Part shown: positions 2,811 to 64,000 of the stretch, in pieces
How the letters are laid out: every line of letters begins with the position of its first letter
Numbering within the stretch: the stretch's first letter is position 1
Origin: an uncultured Bradyrhizobium sp.
GTDB lineage: Bacteria; Pseudomonadota; Alphaproteobacteria; Rhizobiales; Xanthobacteraceae
Assembly: GCF_936928535.1 (NCBI RefSeq)
Contig: NZ_CAKZHY010000097.1
Coordinates: forward strand, 9,852-73,851
Length of the DNA stretch: 64,000 bases
Direction of reading: 5' to 3'
Translations under genes and position numbers: made by a program
The notes under the pieces: model-generated
The model's database searches: none
The model's input: only the letters and a program-made list of their open reading frames with translations
Told to the model about the DNA's origin: nothing

Positions 2811-5800
2811 ATGATTGCTCTGGTCCGTATTGCCCTGAGCCGGCCCTACACGTTTGTCGTGCTGGCGCTTCTGCTTCTGATCGTCGGACCGCTGGCGGCG
2901 CTGCGGACGCCAACCGACATCTTTCCGGACATCCGCATTCCCGTGATCGGCGTGGTCTGGCAGTACACGGGCCTGCCGCCGGACCAGATGTCGGGCCGCA
3001 TCACCACGCCTTTCCAGCGGGCGCTCACCACGACCGTCAACGACATCGAGCACATCACCGCCAATTCCTATAACGGCTTTGGCATCATCAAGATCTTCTT
3101 CCAGCCCAATGTCGACATCCGCACCGCCAATGCGCAGGTGACCGCGATCTCGCAGACGCTGATCAAGCAGATGCCGCCGGGCGCGACGCCGCCCTTGATT
3201 CTGAACTACTCCGCCTCGACCGTGCCGATCGTCCAGGTGGCGCTGTCGGGCGACGGCCTGACCGAGCAGAACCTCGCCGACATCGGCATCAACCAGCTTC
3301 GCACCCCGCTGGTCACGGTGCCGGGCGCTGCGATTCCGTATCCGTTCGGCGGCAAGCAGCGCCAGGTAACGATTGATCTCGACCCGACCGCGCTCCAGGC
3401 CCGCGGGCTATCGGGCCAGGACGTCGCCAATGCGCTCGCCGCGCAAAACCTGATCACGCCGGTCGGCACCCAGAAGATCGGCCAGTTCGAATACAACATC
3501 CAGCTCAACAACTCGCCGCTCAAGATCGAAGAGCTGGGCAATCTGCCGATCAGGACCGTCAACGGCGCGATGGTCTATGTGCGCGACGTCGCGACCGTGC
3601 GCGACGGCAATCCGCCGCAGACCAATATCGTCCATGTCGACGGCAACCGTTCGGTGCTGATGATGGTGCTGAAGGCGGGCGCGACCTCGACGCTCGACAT
3701 CATCGCCGGCATCAAGCAGAAGGTGATCGACGTCAAGGATCAGCTGCCGGATGCGCTGAAGATCGGCTTCATCGGCGACCAGTCGGTGTTCGTCCGTGGC
3801 GCGATCGAGGGCGTCGCCTTCGAAGGCGTCATCGCCGCGCTGCTCACCAGCGTCATGATCCTGCTGTTCCTCGGCAGCTGGCGCTCGACGGTCATCATCG
3901 CGGTCTCGATCCCGCTGTCGGTGCTGGGTGCCATCGTCATGCTGTCGGCGATCGGCGAGACGCTGAACATCATGACACTTGGCGGTCTTGCGCTTGCGGT
4001 CGGCATCCTCGTCGACGACGCCACGGTGACAATCGAGAACATCAATTACCATCTCGAGCAGGGCAAGCCGGTCGAGCAGTCGATTCTCGACGGCGCCAAC
4101 CAGATCGTGACGCCGGCTTTCGTCTCGCTGCTCTGTATCTGCATCGTGTTCGTGCCGATGTTCTTCCTCACCGGCGTCGCACGCTTCCTGTTCGTGCCGA
4201 TGGCCGAAGCCGTGATGTTTGCGATGATCTGGTCGTTCATCCTGTCGCGCACTCTAGTGCCGACCATGGCGAACTATCTGTTGCAGGCGCATGTCCATCA
4301 CGAGGGCGAACCGCCGAAGTCGCGCAATCCTCTCGTCTGGTTCCAGCGCGGTTTCGAGGCCCGGTTCGAACGCATTCGCGGCGGGTACCGCGGGCTGCTC
4401 GGCCTGGCGCTGGCGCATCGCGCGGTGTTCGTGATCGGCTTTCTTTGCGTGGTCGGCGCGTCCTTTGCGCTCGTGCCGTTCCTTGGACGCAACTTCTTCC
4501 CTGCGGTGGACGCCGGCAACATCTTGATGCATGTCCGCACGCAAGTAGGTACCCGCGTCGAGGAGACGGCCAACCAGCTCGCCGACGTGCAGAAGGCCGT
4601 CCGCAAGCTGATTCCCGGCGAGATCGAGACCATGACCGACAACATCGGCATGCCGATCTCCGGCATCAACATGACCTACAACAACACCGGCGTGATCGGC
4701 CCGCAGGACGGCGATATCCAGATCAAGCTGAAAGAAGGCCACAAGCCGACCGAAGAACATGTGAAAGCGCTGCGTGAGCAGCTGCCGCGGCTTTTTCCGG
4801 GCGTGAGCTTCGCCTTCCTGCCGGCCGACATCGTCAGCCAGATCCTGAACTTCGGTGCGCCGGCGCCGATCGACCTGCAAATTCGCGGCGCCAATCTCGC
4901 CGCCAACTTCGCCTATGCCAATAGTCTGCTGGCCAAGGTCCGGCGGATCCCGGGCGTGGCTGATGCACGTATCCAGCAATCGCCAAACGGTCCGACTTTC
5001 AACATCGATGTCGATCGCACCCGCGCGCAATATGTCGGCCTGACCGAGCGCGACGTCACCAACAGCCTCGTGGTCAATCTCGCCGGCTCCTCCCAGGTCG
5101 CGCCGACCTACTTTCTCAATCCCGATAACGGCGTGTCCTATTCGATCGTGATGCAGACGCCGCAATACCAGATCGACTCGCTGAGCGCGTTGCAGACGCT
5201 GCCGATCACGGCATCAGGCAATTCGCAGTCGCCGATCCTCGGCGGCATCGCCGACATCAAGCGCTCGACCTCGAGCGCGGTGGTGTCGCAATACGACATC
5301 CAGTCGATGGTGCAGATCTTTGCGACGACCTCGGGCCGCGATCTCGGTGCCGTCTCCAACGACATCCGCCAGCTGATCGCCGACACCGCCAAGGAGGTGC
5401 CGAAAGGCTCGTCCGTGGTGCTGCTCGGTCAGGTGCAGACCATGAACAGTGCCTTCGCGGGCCTGTTGTTCGGCCTGCTTGGCGCCGTCGTCCTGATCTA
5501 TTTCCTGATCGTGGTGAACTTCCAGTCCTGGTCCGATCCATTCGTGATCATCACGGCGCTGCCGGCCGCGCTCGCCGGCATCGTCTGGATGCTGTTCACG
5601 ACCCAGACCACGTTGTCGGTGCCGGCGCTGACCGGCGCCATCATGTGCATGGGCGTCGCCACCGCCAACAGCGTGCTCGTGATTTCTTTTGCCCGCGAGC
5701 GCTATGAGGAACTCGGTGACCCCATGGCGGCCGCGCTCGAGGCTGGCTTCGTCCGGTTCCGTCCGGTGCTGATGACCGCGCTCGCCATGATCATCGGCAT

Positions 5801-5990
5801 GGCGCCGATGGCGTTGGGGTTAGGGGAGGGTGGCGAGCAGAATGCGCCGCTCGGCCGCGCCGTGATCGGCGGGCTTATTTTCGCAACTTTCGCCACGCTG
5901 ATGTTTGTTCCCGTGGTGTTCAGTATGGTACACAAGAAACAAGGCGCCAAAGCCGCCGCCCCCCTGGAGACTCCGCATGTCGCCCACTGA
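2811..5990 (+). CDS. RND efflux transporter permease (AcrB/AcrD/AcrF, HAE1-like)
   Basis: 1059-aa protein with typical RND N-terminus (MIALVRIALSRPYTFVVLALLLLIVG). Conserved TM4 region GLALAVGILVDDATVTIENI. Duplicated 6-TM plus large-loop organisation. Confidence 0.9.
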   Translation: MIALVRIALSRPYTFVVLALLLLIVGPLAALRTPTDIFPDIRIPVIGVVWQYTGLPPDQMSGRITTPFQRALTTTVNDIEHITANSYNGFGIIKIFFQPNVDIRTANAQVTAISQTLIKQMPPGATPPLILNYSASTVPIVQVALSGDGLTEQNLADIGINQLRTPLVTVPGAAIPYPFGGKQRQVTIDLDPTALQARGLSGQDVANALAAQNLITPVGTQKIGQFEYNIQLNNSPLKIEELGNLPIRTVNGAMVYVRDVATVRDGNPPQTNIVHVDGNRSVLMMVLKAGATSTLDIIAGIKQKVIDVKDQLPDALKIGFIGDQSVFVRGAIEGVAFEGVIAALLTSVMILLFLGSWRSTVIIAVSIPLSVLGAIVMLSAIGETLNIMTLGGLALAVGILVDDATVTIENINYHLEQGKPVEQSILDGANQIVTPAFVSLLCICIVFVPMFFLTGVARFLFVPMAEAVMFAMIWSFILSRTLVPTMANYLLQAHVHHEGEPPKSRNPLVWFQRGFEARFERIRGGYRGLLGLALAHRAVFVIGFLCVVGASFALVPFLGRNFFPAVDAGNILMHVRTQVGTRVEETANQLADVQKAVRKLIPGEIETMTDNIGMPISGINMTYNNTGVIGPQDGDIQIKLKEGHKPTEEHVKALREQLPRLFPGVSFAFLPADIVSQILNFGAPAPIDLQIRGANLAANFAYANSLLAKVRRIPGVADARIQQSPNGPTFNIDVDRTRAQYVGLTERDVTNSLVVNLAGSSQVAPTYFLNPDNGVSYSIVMQTPQYQIDSLSALQTLPITASGNSQSPILGGIADIKRSTSSAVVSQYDIQSMVQIFATTSGRDLGAVSNDIRQLIADTAKEVPKGSSVVLLGQVQTMNSAFAGLLFGLLGAVVLIYFLIVVNFQSWSDPFVIITALPAALAGIVWMLFTTQTTLSVPALTGAIMCMGVATANSVLVISFARERYEELGDPMAAALEAGFVRFRPVLMTALAMIIGMAPMALGLGEGGEQNAPLGRAVIGGLIFATFATLMFVPVVFSMVHKKQGAKAAAPLETPHVAH

Positions 5991-7173
5991 ACCCCGCTCC
6001 CCGGTATCGCACCGGAAACTGGGCATTTTCGGCGTGGTGGCGCTGATTGCGGCGGGTCTCGTCGTCGGCACCGGCATCCGGGCCCGCGAGGACCAGGGCT
6101 CGAAGCTGAAGGAATGGACCGACGACCAGGCTATTCCGAGCGTTGCCGTGACGCTGCCAAACGCCAAGGCGCTCAGCTCCACCCTCGATCTGCCCGGCCG
6201 GCTCGAGGCCTATTATCGCGCGCCGATCTTCGCGCGCGTCTCCGGCTATCTCAAGAGCTGGAGCGCCGACATCGGCGCCCGCGTCAAGGCAGGACAGGTG
6301 ATCGCCGAGATCGAGGCGCCTGACCTCGACCAGCAGCTTCTGCAGGCCCGCGCGGACCTCGCCAGCCAGCAGGCCAGCGCCAGGCTGTCGGAGGCAACCC
6401 TGAACCGGCGCAAGACGCTGGTTGCCTCCAACTTCGTCTCCGCGCAGGAGATCGACGAGCGCACCGCCGACCTCTCCAACAAGAACGCGGCGGTCAAGTC
6501 CGGCCAGGCCAATGTCGAGCGGCTCGAGGCGCTCGCCGGCTACAAGAAGATCACGGTGCCGTTCGATGGCGTGGTGACCTCGCGCGACACCGACGTCGGT
6601 GCGCTGATCAACGCAGGCGGCGGTTCGGGGCCGGCGATGTTCGTGGTCTCCGACATCACCAAGCTGCGCGTGTACGTCAACGTGCCCCAGAATTACGTTC
6701 CGGCCATCAAGATCGGCGCCAAGGCCACCATCTTGTTGCCGGAATATCCGAACCGGACCTTCCAGGCCACGGTGGAGGCATCTTCGCAGGCCGTCGACGT
6801 CGCCTCGGGGACCACGCGCATGCAGCTCGGCCTCGACAATTCCTCCGGTGAGTTGATGCCCGGCGGCTATGCCAGCGTGAAGCTGAGCCTGCAGCGCGAT
6901 TCCGCGCCGCTCAGCATTCCCGCCAGCGCTCTCATTTTCAACGGCAGCGGCCTGCGCGTCGCGACAGTCGGTGCGGACGACAAGGTGAAGTTCAAGACCG
7001 TCACCATCGCCCGCGATCTCGGCAAAGAAATCGAACTCGCCTCGGGCATCGCGCCCGACGACCGCGTCATCACGGCCCCGCCGGACGGCCTCTCCGACGG
7101 CGACCAAGTGCGTGTGGTCGGTGCCGGCGGCAAGCCGGCGACGGCGTCGGAGAAGCAGCCGCCGAAGGGCTGA
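5977..7173 (+). CDS. Efflux RND periplasmic adaptor (membrane fusion protein, HlyD family)
   Basis: ATG at 5977 with GGAG 8 nt upstream; the ORF-track start 5905 is treated as an upstream extension. Single N-terminal TM, lipoyl-like motif APIFARVSGYLKSWSADIGARVKAGQVIAEIEAPDL, coiled coil and beta-barrel region. Overlaps the RND stop by 14 nt. Confidence 0.85.
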   Translation: MSPTEPRSPVSHRKLGIFGVVALIAAGLVVGTGIRAREDQGSKLKEWTDDQAIPSVAVTLPNAKALSSTLDLPGRLEAYYRAPIFARVSGYLKSWSADIGARVKAGQVIAEIEAPDLDQQLLQARADLASQQASARLSEATLNRRKTLVASNFVSAQEIDERTADLSNKNAAVKSGQANVERLEALAGYKKITVPFDGVVTSRDTDVGALINAGGGSGPAMFVVSDITKLRVYVNVPQNYVPAIKIGAKATILLPEYPNRTFQATVEASSQAVDVASGTTRMQLGLDNSSGELMPGGYASVKLSLQRDSAPLSIPASALIFNGSGLRVATVGADDKVKFKTVTIARDLGKEIELASGIAPDDRVITAPPDGLSDGDQVRVVGAGGKPATASEKQPPKG

Positions 7174-51472: not shown

Positions 51473-52288
51473 ATGGCGACGAAGGCTCAAACAACAAAGA
51501 AGGAAGGCAACGTGGCGAACAAGGTCAAGGAAATCTGGAAGTCGGGCAAGGCCGTGGTCAACGCGTGGCTCGCTATTCCCTCCGGCTTCTCGGCTGAGAT
51601 GATCGCGCAATGCGGCTTCGACAGCGTCACCGTCGACATGCAGCACGGCGTGCAGGACTATCTGTCGATGGTGCAGTGCTTCCAGGCCATGGACAAGCAC
51701 CCTGTCACCCCGATGGTCCGCGTGCCCTGGAACGAGCCCGGCATCATCGGCAAGGTGCTCGACGGCGGCGCCTATGGTGTGATCTGCCCGATGGTCAACA
51801 CGCCGCAAGAGGCCAGGAACCTCGTTTCTTACTCGAAGTATCCGCCGAAAGGCGTCCGCTCCAACGGCCCGATCCGGGCAGGCATGTACGGCACGGCCGG
51901 CTCCTACCAGAAGACGGCCAACGATGACATCGTGCTGTTGCCGATGATGGAGACGAAGACTGCGGTCGAGAACATGGAAGCGATCCTCGACGTCGAAGGC
52001 CTCAACGGGGTCTATATCGGCCCGTCCGACCTCGGCTTCTCCTACGGCCTCGAGCCCAAGCTCGACCGGTCCGAGCCCGAGATCCTCGCGATCTACGAGA
52101 AGATCATCAAGGAATGCGACAAGCGTGGGCTCTTCCCCGGCATCCATTGCAGCGGCGCCGAAGGCGCTGCGCGCGCCATCAACATGGGCTTCAAGCTGGT
52201 GACGCTCTCGAACGAGGTCGGCATGATGACGACCTATGCCAAGATGCAGGTCAACGCCACCCGCAAGGAGTCCGGCGGCAAGGCCTAA
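51473..52288 (+). CDS. hpaI: HpcH/HpaI family aldolase (probable 4-hydroxy-2-oxoheptanedioate aldolase)
   Basis: ATG 51473; the track start 50993 is an out-of-frame overlap with hpaR. Has the HpaI-type N-terminus (VNAWLAIPSGFSAEMIAQCGFDSVTVDMQHG), although Q replaces the usual E of DxEH. Downstream of hpaR. Confidence 0.75.
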   Translation: MATKAQTTKKEGNVANKVKEIWKSGKAVVNAWLAIPSGFSAEMIAQCGFDSVTVDMQHGVQDYLSMVQCFQAMDKHPVTPMVRVPWNEPGIIGKVLDGGAYGVICPMVNTPQEARNLVSYSKYPPKGVRSNGPIRAGMYGTAGSYQKTANDDIVLLPMMETKTAVENMEAILDVEGLNGVYIGPSDLGFSYGLEPKLDRSEPEILAIYEKIIKECDKRGLFPGIHCSGAEGAARAINMGFKLVTLSNEVGMMTTYAKMQVNATRKESGGKA

Positions 52289-52303
52289 GTTTTCTCTCCT
52301 TTC

Positions 52304-52447
52304 CCTCTCCCCGTTCTTACGGGGAGAGGGTTAGGGTGAGGGGCCTCTCTCAACACGAATGAAACTCACGATCGAGCGCGCGGCTTGCCCCTCACCCGGC
52401 TCGCTTCGCGATCCGACCTCTCCCCGTAAGAACGGGGAGAGGTGAAG
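52304..52447. repeat. Inverted pair of family D hairpin repeats
   Basis: Left arm CCTCTCCCCGTTCTTACGGGGAGAGGGTTAGGGTGAGGGGC. Right arm GCCCCTCACCC...CCTCTCCCCGTAAGAACGGGGAGAGG. Each arm is itself a hairpin. Confidence 0.6.
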
Positions 52448-52469
52448 TAAGAGACCTAAGGAGACTTCC

Positions 52470-53993
52470 ATGACCATCAGCCCCGTCATCCGCCTGCACC
52501 CCGATGATGGCGTGCTGATCGCGCGCGCGAGCCTGCCGCCGGGAACGGTGGTGGCCGACGGCGTGACCACGGTCGAACGTATTCCCTCCGGCCACAAGGT
52601 TGCGATCAAGCCGATCGCCGTGGGCGAACCTGTCGTCCGCTACGGCCAGATCATCGGCTTTGCGACCCAGGCCATTGCGCCGGGCCAGCACGTACATGTC
52701 CAGAACATCGGCATGGGCGACTTCGCCAAGGACTACGCCTATTGCGCCGACGTCAAGCCGACGCCGAATTTCGATCTGCCGGCGACTTTCGAAGGCATCC
52801 GCCGTCCGGACGGCCGCGTCGCCACGCGCAACTATATCGGCATCCTCACCTCGGTGAATTGCAGCGCGCATGTCGCAAGCCTCGTCGCCGATGTCTTCAA
52901 GAAGAATCCCTTCACCGGCGACAATCCGCTGGCCGAGTTTTCCAATGTCGACGGTGTCGTTGCGCTGACGCACAAGACCGGCTGCGGCATGACGCAGAAC
53001 GAGCCGCTTGCGCTGCTCCGCCGCACCCTCGGCGGCTATGCGCGGCACGTCAATTTCTCCCATGTCATCGTGCTCGGCCTCGGCTGTGAGGTGAACCAGA
53101 TCGGCGGCCTGATGGAAGAGCAGAAGCTCGCCGGCCGCCTCCGCGCGATGGACATCCAGGAGGTCGGCGGCACCCGCAAGACGGTGGAAGCCGGCATTGC
53201 CTTTGTGCGCGAGGCGCTTGCCGACTCCAACAAGGTGAAGCGCGAGTCCGTGCCGGTGAGCGAGCTGACCGTGGCGCTGCAATGCGGCGGCTCGGATGGC
53301 TATTCCGGCGTGTCGGCCAATCCGGCCTTGGGCGCGGCCAGCGATCTCATCGTCCGCCACGGCGGGACCGTGATCCTGTCGGAGACGCCGGAGACCTACG
53401 GCGCCGAGCACCTGCTGACGCGCCGGGCCGTCAGCCGCGAGGTCGGCGAGAAGCTGGTCGACCTCATGCGCTGGTGGGACGAATACACGACGCGCGAAGG
53501 CGCAGAGATGAACGCCAATCCGAGTCCCGGCAACAAGGCCGGCGGCCTCACCACCATTCTGGAAAAGTCGCTCGGCGCGATGGCCAAGGCCGGCACCACC
53601 AATCTCGTCGAGGTGCTGCGCTACGCCGAGCCCGTCACCAAGAAGGGTTTTGTCTTCATGGACACGCCCGGCTACGACCCAGTCGCGGCCACGGGGCAGG
53701 TCGCCGGCGGCGCCAACCTCGTCTGCTTCACCACGGGCCGCGGCAGCGTGTTCGGCTGCAAGCCCGCGCCCTCTATCAAGCTCGCCACCAACACGCCCAT
53801 GTACAAGCGCATGGAAGAGGACATGGACGTCAATTGCGGCACCATCCTCGAAGGCGAGGAGAGCGTGCAGGAGTGCGGCCAGCGCATCTTCGATCTGATC
53901 CTGAAGACCGCCTCGGGCCAGCCGACCAAGAGCGAAAGCTTCGATTTCGGCGGCGCCGAGTTCGCACCTTGGGTGCTGGGCGCGACGATGTGA
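52470..53993 (+). CDS. UxaA family hydrolyase (altronate/galactarate dehydratase-like)
   Basis: N-terminal SAF domain (GTVVADGVTTVERIPSGHKVAIKPIAVGEPVVRYGQIIG) followed by an approximately 400-aa UxaA/GarD-type C-terminal domain. Confidence 0.8.
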   Translation: MTISPVIRLHPDDGVLIARASLPPGTVVADGVTTVERIPSGHKVAIKPIAVGEPVVRYGQIIGFATQAIAPGQHVHVQNIGMGDFAKDYAYCADVKPTPNFDLPATFEGIRRPDGRVATRNYIGILTSVNCSAHVASLVADVFKKNPFTGDNPLAEFSNVDGVVALTHKTGCGMTQNEPLALLRRTLGGYARHVNFSHVIVLGLGCEVNQIGGLMEEQKLAGRLRAMDIQEVGGTRKTVEAGIAFVREALADSNKVKRESVPVSELTVALQCGGSDGYSGVSANPALGAASDLIVRHGGTVILSETPETYGAEHLLTRRAVSREVGEKLVDLMRWWDEYTTREGAEMNANPSPGNKAGGLTTILEKSLGAMAKAGTTNLVEVLRYAEPVTKKGFVFMDTPGYDPVAATGQVAGGANLVCFTTGRGSVFGCKPAPSIKLATNTPMYKRMEEDMDVNCGTILEGEESVQECGQRIFDLILKTASGQPTKSESFDFGGAEFAPWVLGATM

Positions 53994-53996
53994 GAG

Positions 53997-54063
53997 GGCG
54001 ATTGGCGAATAGGGGTTAGCGAAGAGGGGAAGCCTTCGGCAATTCGCTACTCGCCATTCGCCC
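53997..54063. repeat. Imperfect inverted repeat (GGGCGATTGGCGAATAG ... CTACTCGCCATTCGCCC), possible terminator or REP-like element
   Basis: Arms of about 17 bp with mismatches, starting just after the dehydratase stop. Seen once in the window, so family status is unproven. Confidence 0.4.
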
Positions 54064-54153
54064 GTGCCGTAGGCACCCACTGCCCGTTGTTAATGCTTGA
54101 TCGAGGTCACCAGCAGTGTTCTGCTCAAAAAAGCTGCTGGAGCACCGCACCCC

Positions 54154-57100
54154 GTGTCGATCTACGTCGCATTACACCACGTCACGCACTACAAATACGA
54201 CCGCCCGATCGATCTGGGACCGCAGACTATTCGCCTGCGGCCGGCGCCGCATACGCGCACGCCAATCCTGAGCTATTCGCTCAAGGTCACGCCATCCAAT
54301 CACTTCGTGAACTGGCAGCAGGACCCGCAGGGCAACTGGCTTGCCCGCTATGTCTTTCCGGAGAAGACGACCGAACTGAAATTCGAGGTCGACTTCACGG
54401 CGCAGATGACCACGGTCAATCCGTTCGACTTCTTCGTCGAGCCTTACGCCGACAGCTTTCCGTTCGAATATCCTAAGGACTTGAAGACCGAGCTCGCGCC
54501 CTATCTCGAGACCATCAAGCCCGATCCGGCCTTCGCGAAATATCTGGCCTCGCTCCCGCGCGAGGCGCCGAACACCGTCAATTACCTGGTCGATCTCAAT
54601 CGCGAGCTCCAGAAGAAGATCAGCTACATCATCCGCATGGAGCCCGGCGTGCAGACGCCGGAGGAGACGCTGACCTCCTGCGCCGGCTCTTGCCGCGACT
54701 CCGCCTGGCTCCTGATCCAGACCTTCCGTCATCTCGGCCTCGCCGCGCGTTTCGTCTCCGGCTATCTGATCCAGATCCGCCCCGACATCGATCCGATCGA
54801 AGGGCCGCCCGAGGTCGAGAACGACTTCACGGATTTGCACGCCTGGGCCGAGGTCTATCTGCCGGGCGCGGGATGGATCGGGTTCGACGCGACGTCAGGC
54901 ATGCTCGCAGGCGAGGGGCACATCCCGGTCGCCGCCACGCCGCATTATCGCTCGGCCGCGCCGATCTCGGGCGGCGCAGGTTTCGCCGAGGTCGAGTTCG
55001 CCTTCGACATGAGCGTGAAGCGGATCCGCGAGGCGCCGCGCATCACAAAGCCGTTCTCGGACGAATCCTGGGGGCGGCTCAACGATCTCGGCGAGCAGGT
55101 CGACGGCGACCTCGCCGCGCAAGACGTGCGCCTCACCATGGGCGGCGAGCCGACCTTCGTCTCGGTCGATGATCTCGAAGCGGCGGAGTGGAATACGGAA
55201 GCCGTCGGCCCGACCAAGCGCGCGCTCGGCGACGACCTGATCCGCCGCCTGCGCAATCGCTTCGCGCCGGGCGGCCTTTTGCATTACGGCCAGGGCAAAT
55301 GGTATCCGGGCGAAAGCCTGCCGCGCTGGGCGTTCGGCCTCTACTGGCGCAAGGACGGCATGCCGATCTGGAAGAACGCCGACCTCATTGCAAAGATCGA
55401 GAATCCCAGGCGCGCCCACACCGAAGACGCCGAGGATTTCATGGAGGGCACGGCCGTGCGGCTCGGGCTCGATCCCGGCTACATCATTCCGGCCTATGAG
55501 GACACGGTCTACTGGCTCAAGAAGGAAGCCGAGCTTCCTGTCAACGTCGACCCGTCCGACTCCAAATTGTCCGATCCCGAGGCACGCGCGCGGATGGCGC
55601 GGGTGTTCAATCAGGGCCTCCGCGCGCCGCGCGGCTTCGTGTTGCCGGTGCAGCGCTGGAACGCGCCGCCGCGCTGGCGCAGCGAGCGCTGGCAACTCCG
55701 GCGCGGTCATCTGTTCCTGATGCCTGGGGATTCGCCGCTGGGTCTGCGCCTGCCGCTTGACTCGCTCGGCTATGTCCCGCCCAATCAATATCCTTACATC
55801 ATCGAGCGGGATCCGATGGAGGCCCGCGGCAAGCTGCCGGTGTTCAGCCTCCCCGCGCGCCCGGAATCGCCGCCACCGCGGATCGCGCCCGAGCAACTCA
55901 ACATGTCTGTCCCCGTCCGGACCGCGCTGTCGATCGAGGTCCGCGACGGCGTCATCTGCGCGTTCATGCCGCCGGTCGAGCGCATCGAGGATTATCTCGA
56001 AATGATCGCGGCGCTCGAAGCCACGGCCGAGGAGATGAAGCTCCAGGTCCATGTCGAGGGTTATCCGCCGCCATTCGATCCGCGCATCGAGGTCATCAAG
56101 GTGACGCCGGACCCAGGCGTCATCGAGGTCAACATCCAGCCGGCGCAGAGCTGGCGCGATGCGGTCGAGATTACCTCGGGTCTTTATGAGGACGCCGGCA
56201 AGGTCCGTCTCGGCGCTAACCGATTTCTGCTCGATGGCCGCCACACCGGCACTGGTGGTGGCAACCACGTCGTGATCGGCGGCTCCTCACCGCAGGATTC
56301 GCCGTTTCTGCGCCGGCCTGATCTCCTGAAGAGCCTCGTGCTCTACTGGCAGCGGCATCCGTCGCTGTCCTACTTCTTCTCCGGCCTGTTCATCGGCCCG
56401 ACCAGCCAGGCGCCCCGCATCGACGAAGCCCGCCACGACAGCATCTACGAGCTCGAGATCGCGCTCGCGCAGGTGCCGCCGCCGGGCTACCAGGTGCCGC
56501 TGTGGCTGGTCGACCGGCTGTTCCGGCACCAGCTCGTCGACATCACCGGCAACACCCATCGCTCCGAGATCTGTATCGACAAGCTCTATTCGCCCGACGG
56601 TCCCACGGGGCGTCTCGGCCTCGTCGAATTCCGCGCGCTCGAAATGCCGCCGGATCCGCGGATGTCGCTGGCGCAGCAGCTCTTGATCCGCGCGCTGATC
56701 GCAAAGTTCTGGCGCGAGCCGCAACAAGGCAAGTTCGTGCGGTGGGGCACGGCGCTGCATGATCGCTTCATGCTGCCGCATTTCATCTGGGAAGATTTTC
56801 AGGACGTGCTCTCCGAGCTGAAAAGCTCCGGCTATGCGTTCGAGCCGGAATGGTATCTGGCTCAGCTCGAATTCCGCTTCCCCGCCTTCGGCCGCGTTCA
56901 CCACGGCGGCGTGACGATGGAGCTGAGGCAGGCGCTGGAGCCCTGGCACGTCCTGGGCGAGGAGGGCTCGGCCGGCGGCACCGTGCGCTATGTCGATTCG
57001 TCCGTCGAACGGCTTCAGGTCAAGGCCGAGGGGTTCGTCGAAGGCCGTCACATCATTACCTGCAATGGTCGTCGCCTGCCGATGACCTCGACCGGCCGCT

Positions 57101-57426
57101 CGGCCGAAGCCGTGGCCGGCGTTCGCTTCAAGGCCTGGCAACCGGCCTCCGGCCTGCACCCGACCATCCCGGTCCATGCGCCGCTGACGTTTGACCTGAT
57201 CGACAGCTGGAACGGCCGCTCGCTGGGCGGTTGCGTCTATCACGTCGCCCATCCCGGCGGCCGTAACTACGAGACCAAGCCTGTCAACACCTACGAGGCC
57301 GAGGCGCGGCGGCTGGCGCGCTTCCAGGACCACGGTCATACGCCGGGGCCGATGCTGCCGCCGCCCGAGGAACGCACAAATGAATTCCCGCTGACCCTCG
57401 ACTTGCGGACCCCGCTCCTGCAATGA
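54154..57426 (+). CDS. Large transglutaminase-family protein (Bact_transglu_N + transglutaminase core + DUF2126-like C-terminal region)
   Basis: GTG 54154 ([18 protein letters not shown]) with GGAG upstream. Cys-His-Asp candidates are [18 protein letters not shown] and GFDATSG. About 800 further residues carry no motif I recognise. Confidence 0.85.
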
Positions 57427-57453
57427 GTATGATGGTGGGGCAGGGAGAGGCGC

Positions 57454-59976
57454 ATGGGCGAGGGCGCAGCCGAAGGCGACAGGACAGGTAAGGCGCAAGG
57501 ACAGCGCGAAGGCCAGCGCCGCCTTGCGCAATGGGTCCGCGACTATCGCCGCCTGCCTGGCATCCCCGACGAATTCTTAGGCGCCGACGGTGCTCCGCGC
57601 CCGGTCTGGAGCCGCTTCTTCGACGCCTTCGGCGCGCTCGCGCCCGACGAGGTCGAGCGGCGCTTCGGCATGGCCGACCGTCACCTGCGCGAGGCCGGCG
57701 TCACCTACCGCGCCCCCGGCGACAGCGCCGACCGGCCTTGGATGCTGAGCCATCTGCCGCTCTTGATCGATGAAGCCGACTGGAAGCAGCTCTGCGCCGG
57801 CATCACCCAGCGCGCCGAGCTCCTGGAGCTCGTGCTGCGCGACATCTATGGTGAGGGCAAGCTGGTTGCGGAGGGCGCGCTGCCTGCCGGCGCGATCGCC
57901 GGCAGTCCCGAATATCTCCGCCCCGTCTGCGGCGTACCGCCGCCGGGCGGCCGCTACCTCTCGCTCTATGCCGCCGATGTCGGCCGCGGCCCCGACGGCC
58001 GCTGGTGGGTGCTTGGCGATCGCACGCAGGCGCCGTCGGGCGCGGGCTATGCGCTGGAGAACCGCCTGGTGCTCTCGCGCGCCTTCTCCGATCTCTACAA
58101 GTCGATGAACGTGCCGCGCGTCGCGCCGTTCTTCGAGGCGTTTCGCGACAGTCTTCGCGCGCGGGCCGATCGCGACGAGCCGCGCATCGGCGTGCTGACG
58201 CCGGGCAGTTTCAGCGAGACCTATTTCGAGCACGCGACCTTGGCGCGCTATCTCGGTTTCCTCCTGGTCGAGGGCGACGATCTCGCCGTCAGCGACAATC
58301 GCATCCACATCCGCACTGTTGCTGGGCTGAAGCGGCTCGACGTGCTGTTGCGCCGCGTCGATTCCAATTCGCTCGATCCACTCGAGCTCGATGCCTCCTC
58401 GCATCTCGGCGTGCCCGGCCTGATCGACGTGCTGCGCAAGGACGGCGTCGTCGTCGCCAACATGCCGGGCTCGGGCGTCCTTGAGGCGCGGGCGCTGCTC
58501 GGCTTCCTGCCGGCGCTGAGCCGCCGCCTGCTCGGCGAAGAGCTGAAGATGCCGCATATCGCGACCTGGTGGTGCGGCCAGAAATCGGCGTGCGACGAGG
58601 TGTTGTCACGGCTCGACGAGGTCGCGATCGAAGGTGCTTACAGGCGCGGCGTGCCGGGCTTCGACAGTAACGGCCCGGTGCTGGCGAGTGAGCTCAATGC
58701 GGCGGGGCGTCAGCGCCTGATCGATGCCATCGGCGCGCGCGGCATGGATTATGTCGGCCAAGAGGTGGTGCGCCTCTCCACCATGCCGGTGTGGGAGCAG
58801 GGCCAGTTGACCCCGCGGCCCTTCGTGCTGCGCGTGTTTGCGGCCGCAACGCCCGATGGCTGGGCCATCATGCCCGGCGGCTTCTGCCGCATCGCCGAGC
58901 AGGCGGACGCGCGCGCGGTGTCGATGGGCGATGGTGCCCGTGCCGCCGACGTCTGGGTTGTCTCCGAGAAGAAGGTCGCGACCGCATCTCTGCTGCCGGC
59001 AACCGACAAGGTGCGCATCCGCCGCATTGCCGGCGTGCTGCCGAGCCGCGCCGCCGACAATCTGTTCTGGCTCGGCCGCTATCTCGAACGCGCCGAAGCG
59101 ACGCTGCGGCTGGTGCGCGCGCTGGGCTCGCCGAGCGGGCCCAACAAGGGCACCGCGGCCTCGCTGCAATCGGCCGAACGGATCCAGCGCCTGCTGGTGA
59201 CCTGGGGGGCGATCTCGCAGACCTCGCGCGCGGCACCGGGGCGCATCGTCGCCGAAGCCTTGCAAAGCGAGGCGCGTTTCGGCTCGGCGCTGTCGCTGGT
59301 GCGCTCGGCGCTGCGCACGGCCACCTCCTTGCGCGAACGGCTGTCGCCCGATGCCTGGCAGGTCATCACTGAGATGGCTGACCGTCTCTCCTACGAGGTC
59401 GAGGACGACGACAGCGTGCTGAGCGCAGCCGAGCTGACCCTGCAGGAGCTCGCGAGCTTCGCAGGGCTTGCGCAGGAGAACATGAACCGCGCCGCCGGCT
59501 GGCGCTTCCTCGATATCGGACGCCGCACCGAGCGCGCCATCAACACCACGCGCTTTGCGCGGCAGTTCGCCTATGACGAGGCCGGCGACGAGGATCTCGA
59601 CATCCTGCTGACGCTGGTGGATTCCCAGATCACCTACCGCTCGCGCTATCTGCTGGCCCCGATCCTGGCGCCGGTGCGCGACCTCGCGGTGCTCGACAGC
59701 TACAATCCGCGTTCGGTCGCGTTCCAGGTCGCGACCTTGAACGAGCATATCGCGGCGTTGCCAACCCTGAAGGAGCACGGCCTGATCGAAAAGCCGCAGC
59801 GGCTTGCGGTGGCGGTGCAGGCGATGCTGGCGACCGCGGAGGCTGAGAAGCTCGAGGTCAAGGCGCTGTTTACGCTGGAACAGGATCTGCTCGGCCTCGC
59901 CGAGGCGATCGGGCTGCACTACTTCCCGCACGGTCCGAATGCGAGCCGGCCGGAAAAGTTGACGGGGCTGGCGTGA
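57454..59976 (+). CDS. Circularly permuted type-2 ATP-grasp protein fused to an alpha-E domain
   Basis: 840 aa. N-terminal half has CP-ATP-grasp segments (VVANMPGSGVLEARALLGFLP, HIATWWCGQ). C-terminal half has the alpha-E hallmark NLFWLGRYLERAEATLRLVRA. Confidence 0.85.
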   Translation: MGEGAAEGDRTGKAQGQREGQRRLAQWVRDYRRLPGIPDEFLGADGAPRPVWSRFFDAFGALAPDEVERRFGMADRHLREAGVTYRAPGDSADRPWMLSHLPLLIDEADWKQLCAGITQRAELLELVLRDIYGEGKLVAEGALPAGAIAGSPEYLRPVCGVPPPGGRYLSLYAADVGRGPDGRWWVLGDRTQAPSGAGYALENRLVLSRAFSDLYKSMNVPRVAPFFEAFRDSLRARADRDEPRIGVLTPGSFSETYFEHATLARYLGFLLVEGDDLAVSDNRIHIRTVAGLKRLDVLLRRVDSNSLDPLELDASSHLGVPGLIDVLRKDGVVVANMPGSGVLEARALLGFLPALSRRLLGEELKMPHIATWWCGQKSACDEVLSRLDEVAIEGAYRRGVPGFDSNGPVLASELNAAGRQRLIDAIGARGMDYVGQEVVRLSTMPVWEQGQLTPRPFVLRVFAAATPDGWAIMPGGFCRIAEQADARAVSMGDGARAADVWVVSEKKVATASLLPATDKVRIRRIAGVLPSRAADNLFWLGRYLERAEATLRLVRALGSPSGPNKGTAASLQSAERIQRLLVTWGAISQTSRAAPGRIVAEALQSEARFGSALSLVRSALRTATSLRERLSPDAWQVITEMADRLSYEVEDDDSVLSAAELTLQELASFAGLAQENMNRAAGWRFLDIGRRTERAINTTRFARQFAYDEAGDEDLDILLTLVDSQITYRSRYLLAPILAPVRDLAVLDSYNPRSVAFQVATLNEHIAALPTLKEHGLIEKPQRLAVAVQAMLATAEAEKLEVKALFTLEQDLLGLAEAIGLHYFPHGPNASRPEKLTGLA

Positions 59977-60851
59977 TCTACGACATCCGGCACGTTACCA
60001 CCTACGAATATGAGAGCCCGGTCAGCTTCGCCCGCTGCACATTGCGGCTCGAGCCGAACAGCGGTCATGGTCAGGAGCTGATCTCGCACAAGGTCGAGAT
60101 CCGCCCGCGCCCGTCCGAGCGGAACGTCCGCCGCGACTTCTTCGGCACGCTGACCGAGAGCATCGTGATCGAGGCCGCGCACCGCAATTTGCGCATCGAC
60201 TCGCGCTCGCGTGTTTCAGTCGATCGCAAGCCGCCGGCGCGCGATGCCGCGAGTCCGTCCTGGGAGAGCATCCGCGACGTTGCCTTCGAGGCCACGAGCC
60301 TCGGGCCGTCCTCGCCGGTCGGCTACGTCTTTGCAAGCCCGCTGGTGCCTGTGCTGCGTCCCGTCAGCGCCTATGCCGCCGAGAGCTTCAGGCCCGAGAC
60401 CGGTATCCTCGCCGGCGCGGTTGATCTCATGCACCGCATCCGCGCCGAGTTTCGTTACGACCCCAAGGCCACCGCGATCTCGACGCCGCTCGACGAGGTG
60501 TTCGACAAGCGCCATGGCGTCTGCCAGGATTTTGCTCACGTCATGATCGCCGGCCTGCGCGGGCTCGGCCTGCCTGCCGCCTATGTCAGCGGTTACTTGC
60601 GCACCATTCCGCCGCTGGGCCAGGCGCGCTTGCAAGGTGCGGACGCAACCCATGCCTGGGTATCGCTCTGGTGCGGGGCAGAGCTCGGCTGGATTGATTT
60701 CGATCCGACCAACGATCTCCTGGTCGCCAACGATCACATCGTGCTGGCGATGGGCCGCGACTTCTCCGATGTGTCCCCGGTCGACGGTATCATCGTCGGC
60801 TCGCCGAAGCAGAAGCTCGGCGTCGCCGTGGACGTGCTGCTGGTGGAGTGA
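59973..60851 (+). CDS. Transglutaminase family protein (Bact_transglu_N + transglutaminase core)
   Basis: GTG 59973 overlaps the upstream stop (GTGA). Start MIYDIRHVTTYEYESPVSF. Triad candidates GVCQDFAH, THAWVSLW and DFDPTN. Confidence 0.85.
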   Translation: MIYDIRHVTTYEYESPVSFARCTLRLEPNSGHGQELISHKVEIRPRPSERNVRRDFFGTLTESIVIEAAHRNLRIDSRSRVSVDRKPPARDAASPSWESIRDVAFEATSLGPSSPVGYVFASPLVPVLRPVSAYAAESFRPETGILAGAVDLMHRIRAEFRYDPKATAISTPLDEVFDKRHGVCQDFAHVMIAGLRGLGLPAAYVSGYLRTIPPLGQARLQGADATHAWVSLWCGAELGWIDFDPTNDLLVANDHIVLAMGRDFSDVSPVDGIIVGSPKQKLGVAVDVLLVE

Positions 60852-61011
60852 CCGTCGTTTCACCGACCCCCGGATGTGACCGAATGCGTCCAGCCGCGGG
60901 AAATTTGTTTCACCGTATTTCCTTGACGTGCCGAACGGCGGTTCATTAACACGCTGTTAACGCTACCCCGCGACACATTGGCTCACTTTCAACGCTGCTG
61001 AAGCCGAACCG

Positions 61012-61686
61012 ATGGTCGAGGGACTTGCATTGCTGACAGAGGCCGCCGAGCAGGTGGCGCTGTCGCGGATACTGCGAAATTTCAGGCCTGATCTGGCGAT
61101 CTGGGCCGTGTCCGGGATCGAAGAGCTACGCAGCATCGATGCCTCGGCCCTCCGCAACACCAGGCTGGTCGCGTTCGCCTCCGGCGTCATTGTGCCGGCC
61201 GACCTGCTCGCACGCTTTGGCCACGGTGCCTACAATTTCCATCCGGGGCCACCGAACTATCCGGGCTGGGCTCCCGCCCATTTCGCGCTCTATGACCGCG
61301 CGGAGACATTCGGCGTGACCTTTCACGCCATGGCGGAAAAAGTCGATACCGGCGCGATCCTCGACGTGGTGTCGTTTCCGATTCCGCCGGGCAGCACGCT
61401 CATGCGCCTCGGCGAGCTCGGCTATGCGCATCTGCTGCAGATGTTCGAGGTGTGGGCCGAACCGCTGGCGCAGGAGTCCTCGCTGATGCCGCGCTGCGCG
61501 CAGTCCTGGAGCGGTCGCACCAACACGCGTCGTAGCTACAAGCAAGCTTGCGACATTCCGCTCGACATCTCCAGCGATGAGCTGTGGCGCCGCATGCGTG
61601 CCTTCGGCGGCAATCATTACGGCATCGCGCCGGCGATCAATCTGCATGGTGTCACCTTCAGGGCGTCACCTCCGGAGTCTTCATGA
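61012..61686 (+). CDS. Formyltransferase-like protein (Formyl_trans_N domain only)
   Basis: YNFHPGPPNYPGWAPAHFALYDRAETFGVTFHAMAEKVDTGAILD parallels the Fmt/PurN motif N-x-H-x-S-L-L-P...D-x-G, so Asn, His and Asp are retained. No Fmt C-terminal domain. Confidence 0.7.
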   Translation: MVEGLALLTEAAEQVALSRILRNFRPDLAIWAVSGIEELRSIDASALRNTRLVAFASGVIVPADLLARFGHGAYNFHPGPPNYPGWAPAHFALYDRAETFGVTFHAMAEKVDTGAILDVVSFPIPPGSTLMRLGELGYAHLLQMFEVWAEPLAQESSLMPRCAQSWSGRTNTRRSYKQACDIPLDISSDELWRRMRAFGGNHYGIAPAINLHGVTFRASPPESS

Positions 61687-63317
61687 CGTCACCATCGATG
61701 GCCCTTGCGCTGCCTGCCGCCGGCGCGCCAAGCATCGCCGATCTGCTGCACACGGGGCGCGAGCACTACCGGCGTGGTGAGATCAGGCCCGCGATCGCGG
61801 TATTTCAGGCCGGGCTCGCGCTTGCGGCCACGGCGTCGATGGGTGTCGTCGTCGATGGCATTGCCGACCTCCACGCAGCGCTCGCCAATGCGTTCATGCT
61901 CTGCGACGACATCGGTTCTGCGGCCGAGAACTACAAGGCGGCCTTGCGCATCGCGCCGCATCTCGTCGCCTGCTGGTGCAATCTCGGCATCGTCCATCAG
62001 CGCAGCGGCATGATGCAGGATGCGATTTCGCTTTACCTGGAGGCGCTCAGGCGCAATCCGGGCCATCGGCCGTCGCGCACGAATCTGGTCCAGGCATTGA
62101 TGGCGACGCGGCAGTTCGCGATCGCAAAGACCTTGCTGCTGGAATTGATCGAGGAGACGCCCGACGACGCCGATCTCCACAGCCAGCTTGGCAAGGTCTG
62201 CTTCGAGCTCGGCGAGACCGGGGAGGCGGTAGCGCAGTTCGAGCGTGCCGTGGCACTCGCGCCGGGGCAGGCCGAGAATTTCTACTGGGTCGGTGCGATC
62301 CGTCAGGCGCGCGGCGAAAAGGACGAGGCCGAGGCCGCCTACGCCCGCGCCGCGAAAGTACATCCCATCCTGCGCAGGCAAGCCAACCAATCGCCGCCTG
62401 CGTTTCGAGCGCTGGCGCTGTTTGCCCCTTTCTTCGGCAACACGCCGGTCGAATTCCTCTTCAAGGATTGCGCCTACCAGACCAGCATCCTGTCGCTCCT
62501 GCCCGGTCGCCAGCCTGATATCGCGCTGTTGGCGCAGGAGGCCGATGTGGTCGTCAATCTCGTCTCCGATGCCGACCAGGGCGCGGAGGTGCTTCCTCTT
62601 GCCATGGCCATCGCACGAAGCCTCGGCAAGCCTGTCGTCAACGATCCCGCAAAGATCCAGAACACGACGCGCGACGCTACGGCTCTGGCCCTCGCCGATC
62701 TCGACGGCTGCCGCGTTCCGCGCACGGTCCGCATCGCGGCCGGCGAGGGGCTACCCGATGGCCTCGCGCTCGCCTTTCCGCTGCTGGCGCGCCCGGCCGG
62801 TATGCACGGTGGCGATCTCTTCGAGAAGCTCGAGGATGTCGCCGCGCTGATCTCGTTCCTTGCGGCACATGCGGCGCATGACCGCTACGTGATCGACTAT
62901 ATCGACTATCGTTCCGCAGACGGCTACTTCCGCAAGTACAGGTTCTTGTTCGTGGGCGAGGAAATTCTACCCTATCATCTGGCCATTGGCGAGGACTGGA
63001 AGCTCCATCGCGATGCGACGGAGATGGGCAGTCACGCCTGGATGCAGGCCGAGGAGGAGCACTTCCTGCAGGCGCCCGAGCAGGTCTTTAGCCCGCGGCA
63101 CATCGCGGCGTTGCGAGTCATTCGCGATCGCATCGGTCTCGACTATTTCGGCATCGATTGCGGATTGGACCTTGACGGCTGTCTGGTCGTGTTCGAGGTC
63201 AACGCCTCCATGTTGGTGCACGACCAGAATCCGGAATTTCCCTACAAGGACCCGTATATCCACGGGATCAAGGTCGCGTTCGACGCGATGCTTGCGCGCC
63301 TCGCGCGAGGGAATTGA
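61683..63317 (+). CDS. TPR-repeat protein with a C-terminal ATP-grasp (RimK/GshB-like) domain
   Basis: ATG 61683 overlaps the formyltransferase stop (ATGA), with GGAG upstream. About 250 aa of TPR repeats, then ATP-grasp elements FPLLARPAGMHGGDLF, YRKYRFLFVGEEILPYHLAI and LVVFEVNAS (E-x-N). Confidence 0.75.
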   Translation: MTSPSMALALPAAGAPSIADLLHTGREHYRRGEIRPAIAVFQAGLALAATASMGVVVDGIADLHAALANAFMLCDDIGSAAENYKAALRIAPHLVACWCNLGIVHQRSGMMQDAISLYLEALRRNPGHRPSRTNLVQALMATRQFAIAKTLLLELIEETPDDADLHSQLGKVCFELGETGEAVAQFERAVALAPGQAENFYWVGAIRQARGEKDEAEAAYARAAKVHPILRRQANQSPPAFRALALFAPFFGNTPVEFLFKDCAYQTSILSLLPGRQPDIALLAQEADVVVNLVSDADQGAEVLPLAMAIARSLGKPVVNDPAKIQNTTRDATALALADLDGCRVPRTVRIAAGEGLPDGLALAFPLLARPAGMHGGDLFEKLEDVAALISFLAAHAAHDRYVIDYIDYRSADGYFRKYRFLFVGEEILPYHLAIGEDWKLHRDATEMGSHAWMQAEEEHFLQAPEQVFSPRHIAALRVIRDRIGLDYFGIDCGLDLDGCLVVFEVNASMLVHDQNPEFPYKDPYIHGIKVAFDAMLARLARGN

Positions 63318-63634
63318 CGCGACCGTCCGCAGTCTGGCGCAGGCGGCCCTGGCTGCGCCGCAGCGATCCCCCGGACCTATATGGCCTTCCTCGCGAGATG
63401 AACGCTCGGCCATTGGACATGCTGGGAAGCGTACGCGCGCGGCCTGGCTGTGGGATGCATCGGACAGCGACCGCAACCGCAATACGGCGCGGCGGTGGAG
63501 TAACATATTTACGTATTTTTGTTTCGGGATTTGGTCAGCCGCCCCAGATTGGGCTATGCTGGACCCTGCGTCGAGGACAAGAATGAGGCGTCGGGAGTTG
63601 CCGTGGGACACCACCGACAGACGGGGCTGCATCC

Positions 63635-64000
63635 ATGATGACGTTACCGCGACTGGCGGCTGAATCCCTGGAGAAGTTGCTAGGCTCGTTCATGCGTCGC
63701 AGGTACGACGAGACCTATGCCAGGGTCGTGGAAGCCTCGACGCGTACCGCGATGGAATGCATCGGCAACAGCGATGCGCTCTATCACAATATCGAGCATA
63801 CCATGCTGGTGACGCTGGCGGCCCAGGCGATCATGCTGGGCCGCAATCTCCATGCCCACATCGATGCCGACGATTACATTCACGTTCTGATCGCCTGCCT
63901 GGCGCACGATATCGGCTATGTCCGCGGGCTGTTTCCCGAAGATGACGAAGATGGTTTCATCATCGACGAGGCCGGCACCAAGGTGTCATTGCCGCGCGGC
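63635..64000 (+). CDS. HD-domain metal-dependent phosphohydrolase, N-terminal part (3' end outside the window)
   Basis: Not in the ORF track because it is open-ended. My translation from ATG 63635 gives MMTLPRLAAESLEKLLG...LYHNIEHTMLVT...LIACLAHDIGYVRG, which contains the H...HD motif. Frame checked against track ORFs 62986 and 63757. Confidence 0.65.
   Translation, partial: MMTLPRLAAESLEKLLGSFMRRRYDETYARVVEASTRTAMECIGNSDALYHNIEHTMLVTLAAQAIMLGRNLHAHIDADDYIHVLIACLAHDIGYVRGLFPEDDEDGFIIDEAGTKVSLPRG

Follow-up and report, generated by a model that had tools for sequence, protein, structure and literature searches.

The carboxylate-amine ligases closest in structure to the second of the two proteins considered here belong to the RimK branch of the ATP-grasp superfamily, i.e., RimK (5zct), Thermus LysX (3vpd) and Sulfolobus ArgX (3vpb), all of which act on protein C-termini. 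For the first protein, the nearest described systems are the sugar N-formyltransferases (Rv3404c, 4pzu; VioF, 4yfv; WbkC, 5vyq-u; FdtF; and the ArnA N-domain) and the methionyl-tRNA formyltransferase Fmt. A looser, architectural parallel is offered by O-GlcNAc transferase, in which an N-terminal tetratricopeptide-repeat (TPR) array is followed by a C-terminal catalytic domain, with the array selecting the protein substrates. We have examined a 64,000-nucleotide stretch of DNA (the window) from an uncultured Bradyrhizobium sp. (assembly GCF_936928535.1, contig NZ_CAKZHY010000097.1) in which a gene for a small formyltransferase-fold protein (open reading frame 1, ORF1) overlaps one for a TPR + ATP-grasp protein (ORF2). 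A previous inspection of these letters without database searches (the sequence-only reading) had proposed that the pair forms a functional amidoligase cassette. Our own preferred reading, held at about even confidence, is that ORF1 and ORF2 are real genes that share a transcript and are coupled in translation in this Bradyrhizobium lineage, yet functionally separable and not an obligate two-enzyme system. The pair and its junction lie as follows.

61012-61686, + strand: ORF1, 224 aa, small formyltransferase-fold protein
61683-63317, + strand: ORF2, 544 aa, TPR + predicted ATP-grasp ligase
61674-61686, + strand: coupling junction, with GGAG at 61674-61677, the ORF2 ATG at 61683-61685 and the ORF1 TGA at 61684-61686

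Both genes and the overlap described by the sequence-only reading were borne out. The ORF1 stop and ORF2 start share a 4-bp ATGA on inspection of the sequence, a GGAG Shine-Dalgarno motif stands 5 nt 5' of the ORF2 ATG in the window, and the ATGA overlap is kept in 9/9 loci carrying both genes. Part of a 401-kb contig in JGI metagenome 3300047542 corresponds to the window and is identical to it across the compared genes (54097-63317); there, ORF2 was called from an ATG 5 codons downstream, giving 539 aa and no overlap. We rejected that start, as its ATG is replaced in three orthologous loci (L010, L027 and L080); given this lack of conservation and the ATGA in all nine loci, the 544-aa start and the overlap stand. 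The motifs NFHPG and VDTGAIL of ORF1, as well as LLARPAGMHGG, FRKYRFLFVGEEILPYHLAI and FEVNAS of ORF2, were all confirmed. Each protein has more than 1300 homologues at E <= 0.001, and the ratio of nonsynonymous to synonymous divergence (dN/dS, Nei-Gojobori) is 0.23 for ORF1 and 0.17 for ORF2, next to 0.07 for the adjoining transglutaminase gene. ORF1 and ORF2 are thus real genes, both under purifying selection. Neither protein matched PADLOC at E <= 0.01, so a defence system is not indicated, and Rfam gave no match over 52000-64000.

The separability of the two genes is argued by their distribution. We collected 80 genome loci that encode relatives of the ATP-grasp domain and looked in each for the neighbours seen in the window. 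Thirteen proved syntenic with it, making 14 with the window itself, and these sit 3' of genes for a DUF2126+transglutaminase protein, a circularly permuted ATP-grasp+Alpha-E protein and a transglutaminase. A formyltransferase gene lies directly 5' of the ligase gene, with the ATGA overlap, in 9 of the 14; the other five (B. zhengyangense, B. manausense, BR13661, genosp. A and one metagenome-assembled genome) have none. Junction alignment of these five (L003, L006, L007, L009 and L013) gave five different deletion breakpoints. In L003 and L009, the last 30-50 nt of the formyltransferase gene remain, and in L007 almost nothing is left between the 5' leader and CATGA, while L013 has a further, different junction. 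Both gene ends remain in L006 (Bradyrhizobium manausense, 5180-5287), where they form an in-frame 34-codon mini-ORF, MVEAPVLLTDTAEQVAIARTLHGVTFTATFPETA with its stop; as this ends in ATGA, the ligase gene may still be translationally coupled there. The remnants in L003, L007 and L013 have no start codon, while that in L009 retains a longer open frame with start codons, such that a coupled remnant ORF is possible. Since 5' and 3' remnants persist in loci without the gene, the formyltransferase gene was ancestral and has been lost at least five times; its insertion into some strains, which we also considered, was rejected on the same grounds.

Loss of the formyltransferase gene has left the ligase gene intact. 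In all five deletion loci the ligase is full length (aa 1-544 in L003, L006 and L009, 1-542 in L007 and 1-543 in L013), the ORF2 ATG survives in every one and the GGAG in four of the five. For the three deletion loci of equal length, to which this computation was confined (L003, L006 and L009), ligase dN/dS is 0.15-0.18, compared with 0.14-0.21 in lineages that keep the formyltransferase. The converse also occurs: the formyltransferase gene is intact and the ligase gene frameshifted in L012, a complete chromosome (one frameshift, 5284-6916), and in L080, a draft assembly (three, 5282-6924). These frameshifts could reflect pseudogenes or sequencing errors, the latter possibility being a point against our preferred reading.

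Beyond these loci, pairing was not seen. The remaining 67 of the 80 genome loci are paralogue-like (45-62% identity) and can be sorted by synteny into a few groups, without a formyltransferase gene adjoining the ligase gene in any of them. A further 80 loci came from metagenomes, scanned with a distant family clade as the seed; many of these are short, with only ~30 contigs above 9 kb, and in the flanks fetched, none contained formyltransferase, DUF2126, permuted ATP-grasp or transglutaminase genes. The formyltransferase + TPR-ATP-grasp pairing is confined to one Bradyrhizobium orthologue group (9 of 14 syntenic loci) and is not conserved across genomes and lineages, which, on the terms that the sequence-only reading set for its own refutation, tells in large part against the cassette; nor are the partners gained and lost together. 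With pairing in a single lineage and independent losses, an obligate two-enzyme system is improbable, and the arrangement probably amounts to an operon particular to this lineage.

Paralogues of the two families do come close to one another a second time. In L045, L047, L050, L055 and L070, a formyltransferase paralogue (46-50% identity) lies ~2.9 kb 3' of a TPR-ATP-grasp paralogue, and between them loci of the L047 type encode a Ser-rich ~200-aa protein and, on the opposite strand, a histidine kinase/response regulator pair; L087 is a decayed version of this arrangement, with the ligase gene in fragments and the formyltransferase gene intact. The Ser-rich, low-complexity protein (~190-207 aa), encoded directly 5' of the formyltransferase paralogue (L047 9184-9807; L087 5372-5938), is 59% identical between these two copies, with a His/Gly-rich stretch (HHGHHGG) and no Pfam match. 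A 346-aa ORF 3' of the formyltransferase paralogue in L047 was tried as a TPR-less ATP-grasp protein and rejected (hhalign probability 0.6%). Other formyltransferase homologues (51-57% identity) were found in four unrelated contexts, including alone, beside a P450 gene and before a KaiC-like ATPase gene.

These observations bear directly on the proposal of the sequence-only reading, i.e., that ORF1 and ORF2 form a functional cassette working on one substrate, with coupling setting their stoichiometry; for instance, the ligase might attach an amine or amino acid, with the formyltransferase capping a free amino group, on either the donor or the product, by N-formylation. The nine conserved overlaps, purifying selection on both genes and the independent ~3 kb proximity of paralogues in the L047 group all speak for such a cassette. 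Set against it are the five independent formyltransferase deletions, with ORF2 length unchanged and dN/dS unchanged in the three loci measured, and the two loci with an intact formyltransferase gene and a frameshifted ORF2. Moreover, no formyltransferase gene adjoins the 67 paralogous loci or occurs in the flanks of the 80 metagenome loci, formyltransferase homologues stand mostly alone in unrelated contexts, and our literature searches found no known pathway that uses the pair. We thus regard a functional cassette as unlikely, at perhaps one chance in five, a weight it keeps through the conserved overlap and the second proximity.

Several points weigh against the separable-genes reading that we prefer. 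The ATGA overlap has been kept across species at a synonymous divergence (dS) of ~0.5, which argues that the two genes are expressed together wherever both exist. The L045/L047/L050/L055/L070 loci, along with the decayed L087, bring the two families near each other independently for a second time; on a rough estimate that assumes roughly 10 ligase paralogues per 9-Mb genome, two such proximities among ~5 formyltransferase contexts exceed chance (~5e-4). The observed pattern could also arise if one partner is lost and the other then decays, provided that the losses are recent. Lastly, the folds, residues, coupling, distribution and independent losses are shown, but the chemistry of the two proteins and any substrates suggested below are inferred.

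Turning to ORF1, its fold is that of a formyltransferase by sequence and predicted structure.

61234-61236, + strand: Asn75 of ORF1, catalytic-type residue by homologue alignment
61240-61242, + strand: His77 of ORF1, likewise
61345-61347, + strand: Asp112 of ORF1, likewise

The protein passes the Pfam Formyl_trans_N profile (PF00551) with 43.4 bits (gathering cut-off 26.1), in a match that covers only profile positions 89-165 of 181, i.e., the catalytic half. Its best PDB sequence matches are Fmt, ArnA and the gramicidin F-domain, and N75, H77 and D112 align with the corresponding residues of Fmt and ArnA. Retention of this Asn/His/Asp triad, noted from the sequence alone, was confirmed by its invariance in 40 homologues (51-88% identity), where it sits within GAYNFHPGPPxYPGWAP and VDxGxI. 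The AlphaFold2 model (predicted local distance difference test [pLDDT] score 87.6, with low confidence in the last 20 aa) retrieved sugar N-formyltransferases and Fmt as its best Foldseek matches (template-modelling [TM] score 0.6-0.7, 15-22% identity). The same core fold, the triad, the folate-loop pattern H-x-x-x-x-P-x-Y-x-G-x-A-P and, for the sugar enzymes, an overall size (230-250 aa) similar to its own thus link ORF1 to these described systems. The suggestion that ORF1 consists of the Formyl_trans_N catalytic domain only was right as to fold and wrong as to extent: the N-terminal subdomain is shortened (57 aa precede the matched part, versus ~88 profile positions), unlike in the sugar N-formyltransferases and Fmt, and the 40-homologue alignment contains a conserved C-terminal extension of ~90 aa.

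ORF1 falls far below every NCBIfam equivalog cut-off, including those for Fmt (TIGR00460, 42.2 bits versus 201.5) and the sugar N-formyltransferases (NF005755, 23.6 bits versus 238). At 224 aa versus ~315, it matches only the first part of the Fmt C-terminal domain. Since ORF1 is without the tRNA-binding domain of Fmt, and given the TIGR00460 score, we rejected the name methionyl-tRNA formyltransferase that it carries in JGI as unjustified. Unlike the sugar N-formyltransferases, ORF1 has no nucleotide-sugar genes nearby, either in the examined part of the window or at the locus. Its triad type suggests N10-formyl-tetrahydrofolate as the donor, and the predicted enzyme may alternatively have hydrolase or other acyl-transfer activity. 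In our preferred reading, ORF1 would be an accessory formyltransferase-fold enzyme that came to be encoded upstream of ORF2, as the first cistron, in the ancestor of the orthologue group and would be dispensable for ORF2.

For ORF2, the description as a TPR protein with a RimK-like ATP-grasp domain proved sound, the former part by Pfam and the latter by AlphaFold2 and Foldseek rather than by Pfam or NCBIfam.

61734-62372, + strand: TPR region of ORF2 (aa ~18-230), 5-6 repeats
62400-63314, + strand: ATP-grasp domain of ORF2 (aa 240-544), by AlphaFold2, Foldseek and hhalign
62790-62792, + strand: Arg370 of ORF2, at the position of the phosphate-binding Lys
63156-63158, + strand: Asp492 of ORF2, putative Mg/ATP ligand by alignment with RimK
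63195-63197, + strand: Glu505 of ORF2, likewise
63201-63203, + strand: Asn507 of ORF2, likewise

Pfam models TPR_1, TPR_2, TPR_16, TPR_12 and TPR_6 match aa 57-228 (E down to 4e-22), with the extension from aa 57 back to aa 18 being a reading of the sequence by eye. No Pfam model matches the C-terminal 305 aa, PF08443 included, and the sole NCBIfam match of this part is to TIGR00768 (RimK; 19.6 bits, cut-off 143.4). A PDB search with the single domain sequence returned one chance-level match, and a profile built from 37 family members gave weak matches to LysX and carbamoyl-phosphate synthetase; as sequence and profile searches of PDB were this weak, structure prediction and Foldseek were needed. 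The AlphaFold2 model (pLDDT 95.6, predicted TM score 0.92) matched 602 PDB chains at E <= 0.001, with probability 1.0 to RimK, LysX/ArgX, synapsin, Ddl and PurK; RimK 5zct was matched at E 8e-13, and RimK, ArgX/LysX, synapsin and Ddl as a group at E ~1e-12, TM ~0.6 and 11-19% identity. On the strength of this model, aa 240-544 comprise a complete three-subdomain ATP-grasp fold.

Comparison with the RimK branch shows both kinship and distance. In hhalign with E. coli RimK, K141 corresponds to R370 of ORF2, D248 to D492, E260 to E505 and N262 to N507, and the RimK DIR strand aligns with KYR of ORF2; the three-subdomain fold, the aligned Asp, Glu and Asn and the Arg of the DIR/KYR strand are therefore in common, as is, probably, acyl-phosphate ligase chemistry. 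The catalytic residues whose absence from proper alignments would have spoken against the sequence-only reading are thus present in ORF2 (D492, E505, N507), as they are in ORF1 (N/H/D). ORF2 nonetheless stands apart from the RimK family proper (PF08443/TIGR00768). Its identity to the RimK branch is 15-19% and its scores lie far below the family cut-offs; where RimK has the substrate-side segment FRSNLHRGG, hhalign places unrelated sequence peculiar to the family, the HLAI..W-K-x-H..M..EE helix region, with an inserted helix in it; and no gene for ribosomal protein S6 or a LysW-type partner occurs near ORF2 in the examined part of the window or at the locus. Further differences from the RimK branch are the fused N-terminal TPR array and the Arg in place of the phosphate-binding Lys. 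This Arg, remarked upon by the sequence-only reading in LLARP, is real; being invariant in the family and native in carbamoyl-phosphate synthetase, it is not anomalous. The vvRPsxxxGG of the carbamoyl-phosphate synthetase large subunit (1bxr) aligns with LLARPAGMHGG, in a match to the ORF2 family that is weak (E ~0.01) and local only, and that enzyme differs in architecture and in chemistry (bicarbonate or carbamate phosphorylation).

Placement by profile and structure, as the sequence-only reading had advised, thus defines a distinct family near RimK, LysX/ArgX, synapsin and Ddl, of which ORF2 is a complete and probably active member. Exhaustive HMMER searching with the ATP-grasp domain gave 2644 clusters at 50% identity with E <= 0.001, 617 of them with E <= 1e-30. 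Most members have an N-terminal extension of 150-500 aa, and TPR fusion is near-universal. Invariant positions among 37 members (35-57% identity), in a domain numbering in which R131 is R370, D253 is D492, E266 is E505 and N268 is N507 of ORF2, are N81, P83, R91, R131, G138, D174, R178, K179, R181, H193, W200, E218, E219, D253, F265 and E266. No Pfam or NCBIfam model rises above threshold for this domain, the Pfam ATP-grasp matches being sub-threshold; PF08443 reaches E <= 1 in only 10 of the 37 members (best 0.032). The family occurs in soil Alpha- and Betaproteobacteria and is common in Bradyrhizobium, other Alphaproteobacteria and Paraburkholderia, where its annotations go no further than TPR protein, hypothetical protein or ATP-grasp domain protein; looking up distant cluster representatives yielded no informative names. 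It is multi-copy in Bradyrhizobium-like genomes. L017 contains two TPR-ATP-grasp paralogues back to back and divergent (3573-5111, - strand; 5248-6924, + strand) that are ~32% identical in the catalytic domain (hhalign E 1e-62), and the matching neighbour in L047 (3508-5121, - strand) is a TPR protein of similar size. We found no solved or characterised family member, no orthologue of ORF1 or ORF2 with an assigned function or structure, and no paper on either family or on the ORF1-ORF2 pair; the statement that the pair lies outside any characterised pathway accordingly holds, and the TPR-ATP-grasp fusion family is undescribed, as far as database and literature searches show.

On the basis of its modelled fold, ORF2 is predicted to be a cytoplasmic ATP-dependent carboxylate-amine ligase. 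If it follows the mechanism usual in the superfamily, it would bind Mg-ATP via Arg370, Lys418/Arg420, Asp492, Glu505 and Asn507 and phosphorylate a carboxylate to an acyl-phosphate, which attack by an amine would then convert to an amide. The TPR module would most likely select or hold a partner; here, O-GlcNAc transferase is analogous in its TPR + catalytic architecture and unrelated in fold and chemistry, such that the analogy may serve as a lead, not as evidence. As the partner, the tail of a peptide or protein (the case with RimK and LysX/ArgX) would be only slightly favoured over a small molecule, with the structural neighbours and the near-universal TPR fusion behind this slight lean. 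Family members would generally work without a fixed neighbour, and ORF2 itself would be a stand-alone amide ligase.

The neighbours of distant family members speak to the other side of that choice, i.e., that ORF2 is a small-molecule amide synthetase (cf. carnosine/dipeptide synthetases) that would ligate an amino acid, or an amine derived from one, and in which the TPR serves assembly, not substrate capture. A class-V (SerC-like) aminotransferase gene lies beside the ligase gene in 10 loci of a distant clade, mostly directly 3' (e.g., L107 8949-10037 and L090 7942-9036, with eight others), with a 4-bp overlap of the two on a Paraburkholderia plasmid. In other subclades, a PanD-type aspartate decarboxylase gene lies 18 bp 3' of the ligase gene (L092), and a PLP-dependent (pyridoxal phosphate-dependent) decarboxylase gene occurs on a Rhizobium tumorigenes plasmid (L091), where it follows the gene for a ~510-560-aa protein. 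This last protein, which has no Pfam match, is encoded beside family members in seven loci (L169 9036-10553, L091 8430-9974, L092 9073-10752 and four others). Ddl-type small-molecule ligases are, moreover, among the structural matches of ORF2. Against a small-molecule product, the aminotransferase and decarboxylase neighbours belong to homologues only 31-45% identical and none is present at the window locus, the best structural matches are enzymes working on protein C-termini (RimK, LysX/ArgX), and TPR fusion is near-universal in the family. We consider a small-molecule synthetase rather less probable than not, at somewhat under one chance in three, and very much alive given the amino-acid-metabolism neighbours in other subclades; it concerns the substrate only and is compatible with the separability of ORF1.

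The surroundings of the pair comprise the following features.

60852-61011, + strand: 160-bp intergenic region from the transglutaminase gene to ORF1, candidate promoter/operator
~60898-60911, + strand: conserved block GGAAATTTGTTTC in the intergenic region 5' of ORF1
60946-60960, + strand: inverted repeat TTAAC-ACGCT-GTTAA in the intergenic region 5' of ORF1
54097-60851: upstream three-gene operon for a DUF2126+transglutaminase protein (1109 aa), a circularly permuted ATP-grasp+Alpha-E protein (840 aa) and a transglutaminase (292 aa)
63635-64000, running off the window end: gene 3' of ORF2, Npun_R2479-family (PF28239), 275 aa

The intergenic region is conserved in all compared loci, including all five without the formyltransferase gene (blocks within 60898-60963). 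Scanning of 60852-61011 gave neither a terminator-like site nor, on the + strand, a sigma-70-like consensus promoter; the region probably holds a promoter or operator for ORF1-ORF2. The proteins of the upstream operon, a type reportedly covered by the amidoligase survey of Iyer and colleagues in 2009, are 90-97% identical across the syntenic Bradyrhizobium loci, far above the conservation of ORF1 and ORF2. The Npun_R2479-family gene is kept 3' of ORF2 in syntenic loci, with a TspO gene and two extracytoplasmic function (ECF) sigma factor genes next in line on the parent contig.

This setting admits another explanation, in which the partner of ORF2 is not ORF1 but the upstream DUF2126/permuted ATP-grasp+Alpha-E/transglutaminase operon (54097-60851), with ORF2 as a further ligase on the same peptide or protein substrate and ORF1 as an insertion. 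In 14/14 syntenic loci, an ORF2 orthologue comes after this operon in the same orientation, with no terminator predicted in between. Elsewhere, in an unrelated assembly, the 808-aa family member P0402 (~39% identity in the domain) is encoded directly beside a DUF2126+transglutaminase / 243-aa / Alpha-E operon:

L094 6001-13510, convergent: P0402 gene and DUF2126-type operon
L095 211-7723, convergent: P0402 gene and DUF2126-type operon

Another member of the family, P0297, is encoded 3 kb from a transglutaminase gene. The P0402 locus may represent a recurrent association with the upstream synteny of the window itself, a lead and not a result. In the opposite direction, DUF2126, permuted ATP-grasp and transglutaminase genes occur in 0/67 paralogous loci and in 0/80 metagenome loci within the flanks fetched, the L094 genes are convergent and so not one operon, synteny inside one genus is weak evidence, and two hits among ~60 independent contexts are suggestive only (P ~0.01, a rough estimate). 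Partnership with the upstream operon is therefore, in our view, improbable, at little more than one chance in ten.

More speculative still is a scheme of ligation followed by N-formyl capping, in which the TPRs of the different paralogues would pick proteins or peptides, the ATP-grasp domain would add amino acids, and, in the lineage of the window, the coupled formyltransferase would N-formylate the added residue and so cap the resulting tail. We rate this a long shot, somewhat short of one chance in ten. If true, the TPR-ATP-grasp family would be a bacterial counterpart of RimK, LysX and the tubulin tail-modifying ligases, the two steps would constitute an undescribed protein modification, and repeated loss of the formyltransferase would mean that the cap is optional, with the genes still related.

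Ultimately, ORF1 and ORF2 are uncharacterised members of known enzyme superfamilies, with nothing mechanistically surprising about them, and the finding opens no long-standing question at present; its main value lies in annotation and in a natural experiment. A model of the TPR-ATP-grasp family, together with a single biochemical characterisation, would enable the annotation of thousands of genes now listed as "tetratricopeptide repeat protein". In turn, the presence or absence of the formyltransferase among Bradyrhizobium species provides a natural experiment on whether the two enzymes have a shared product.

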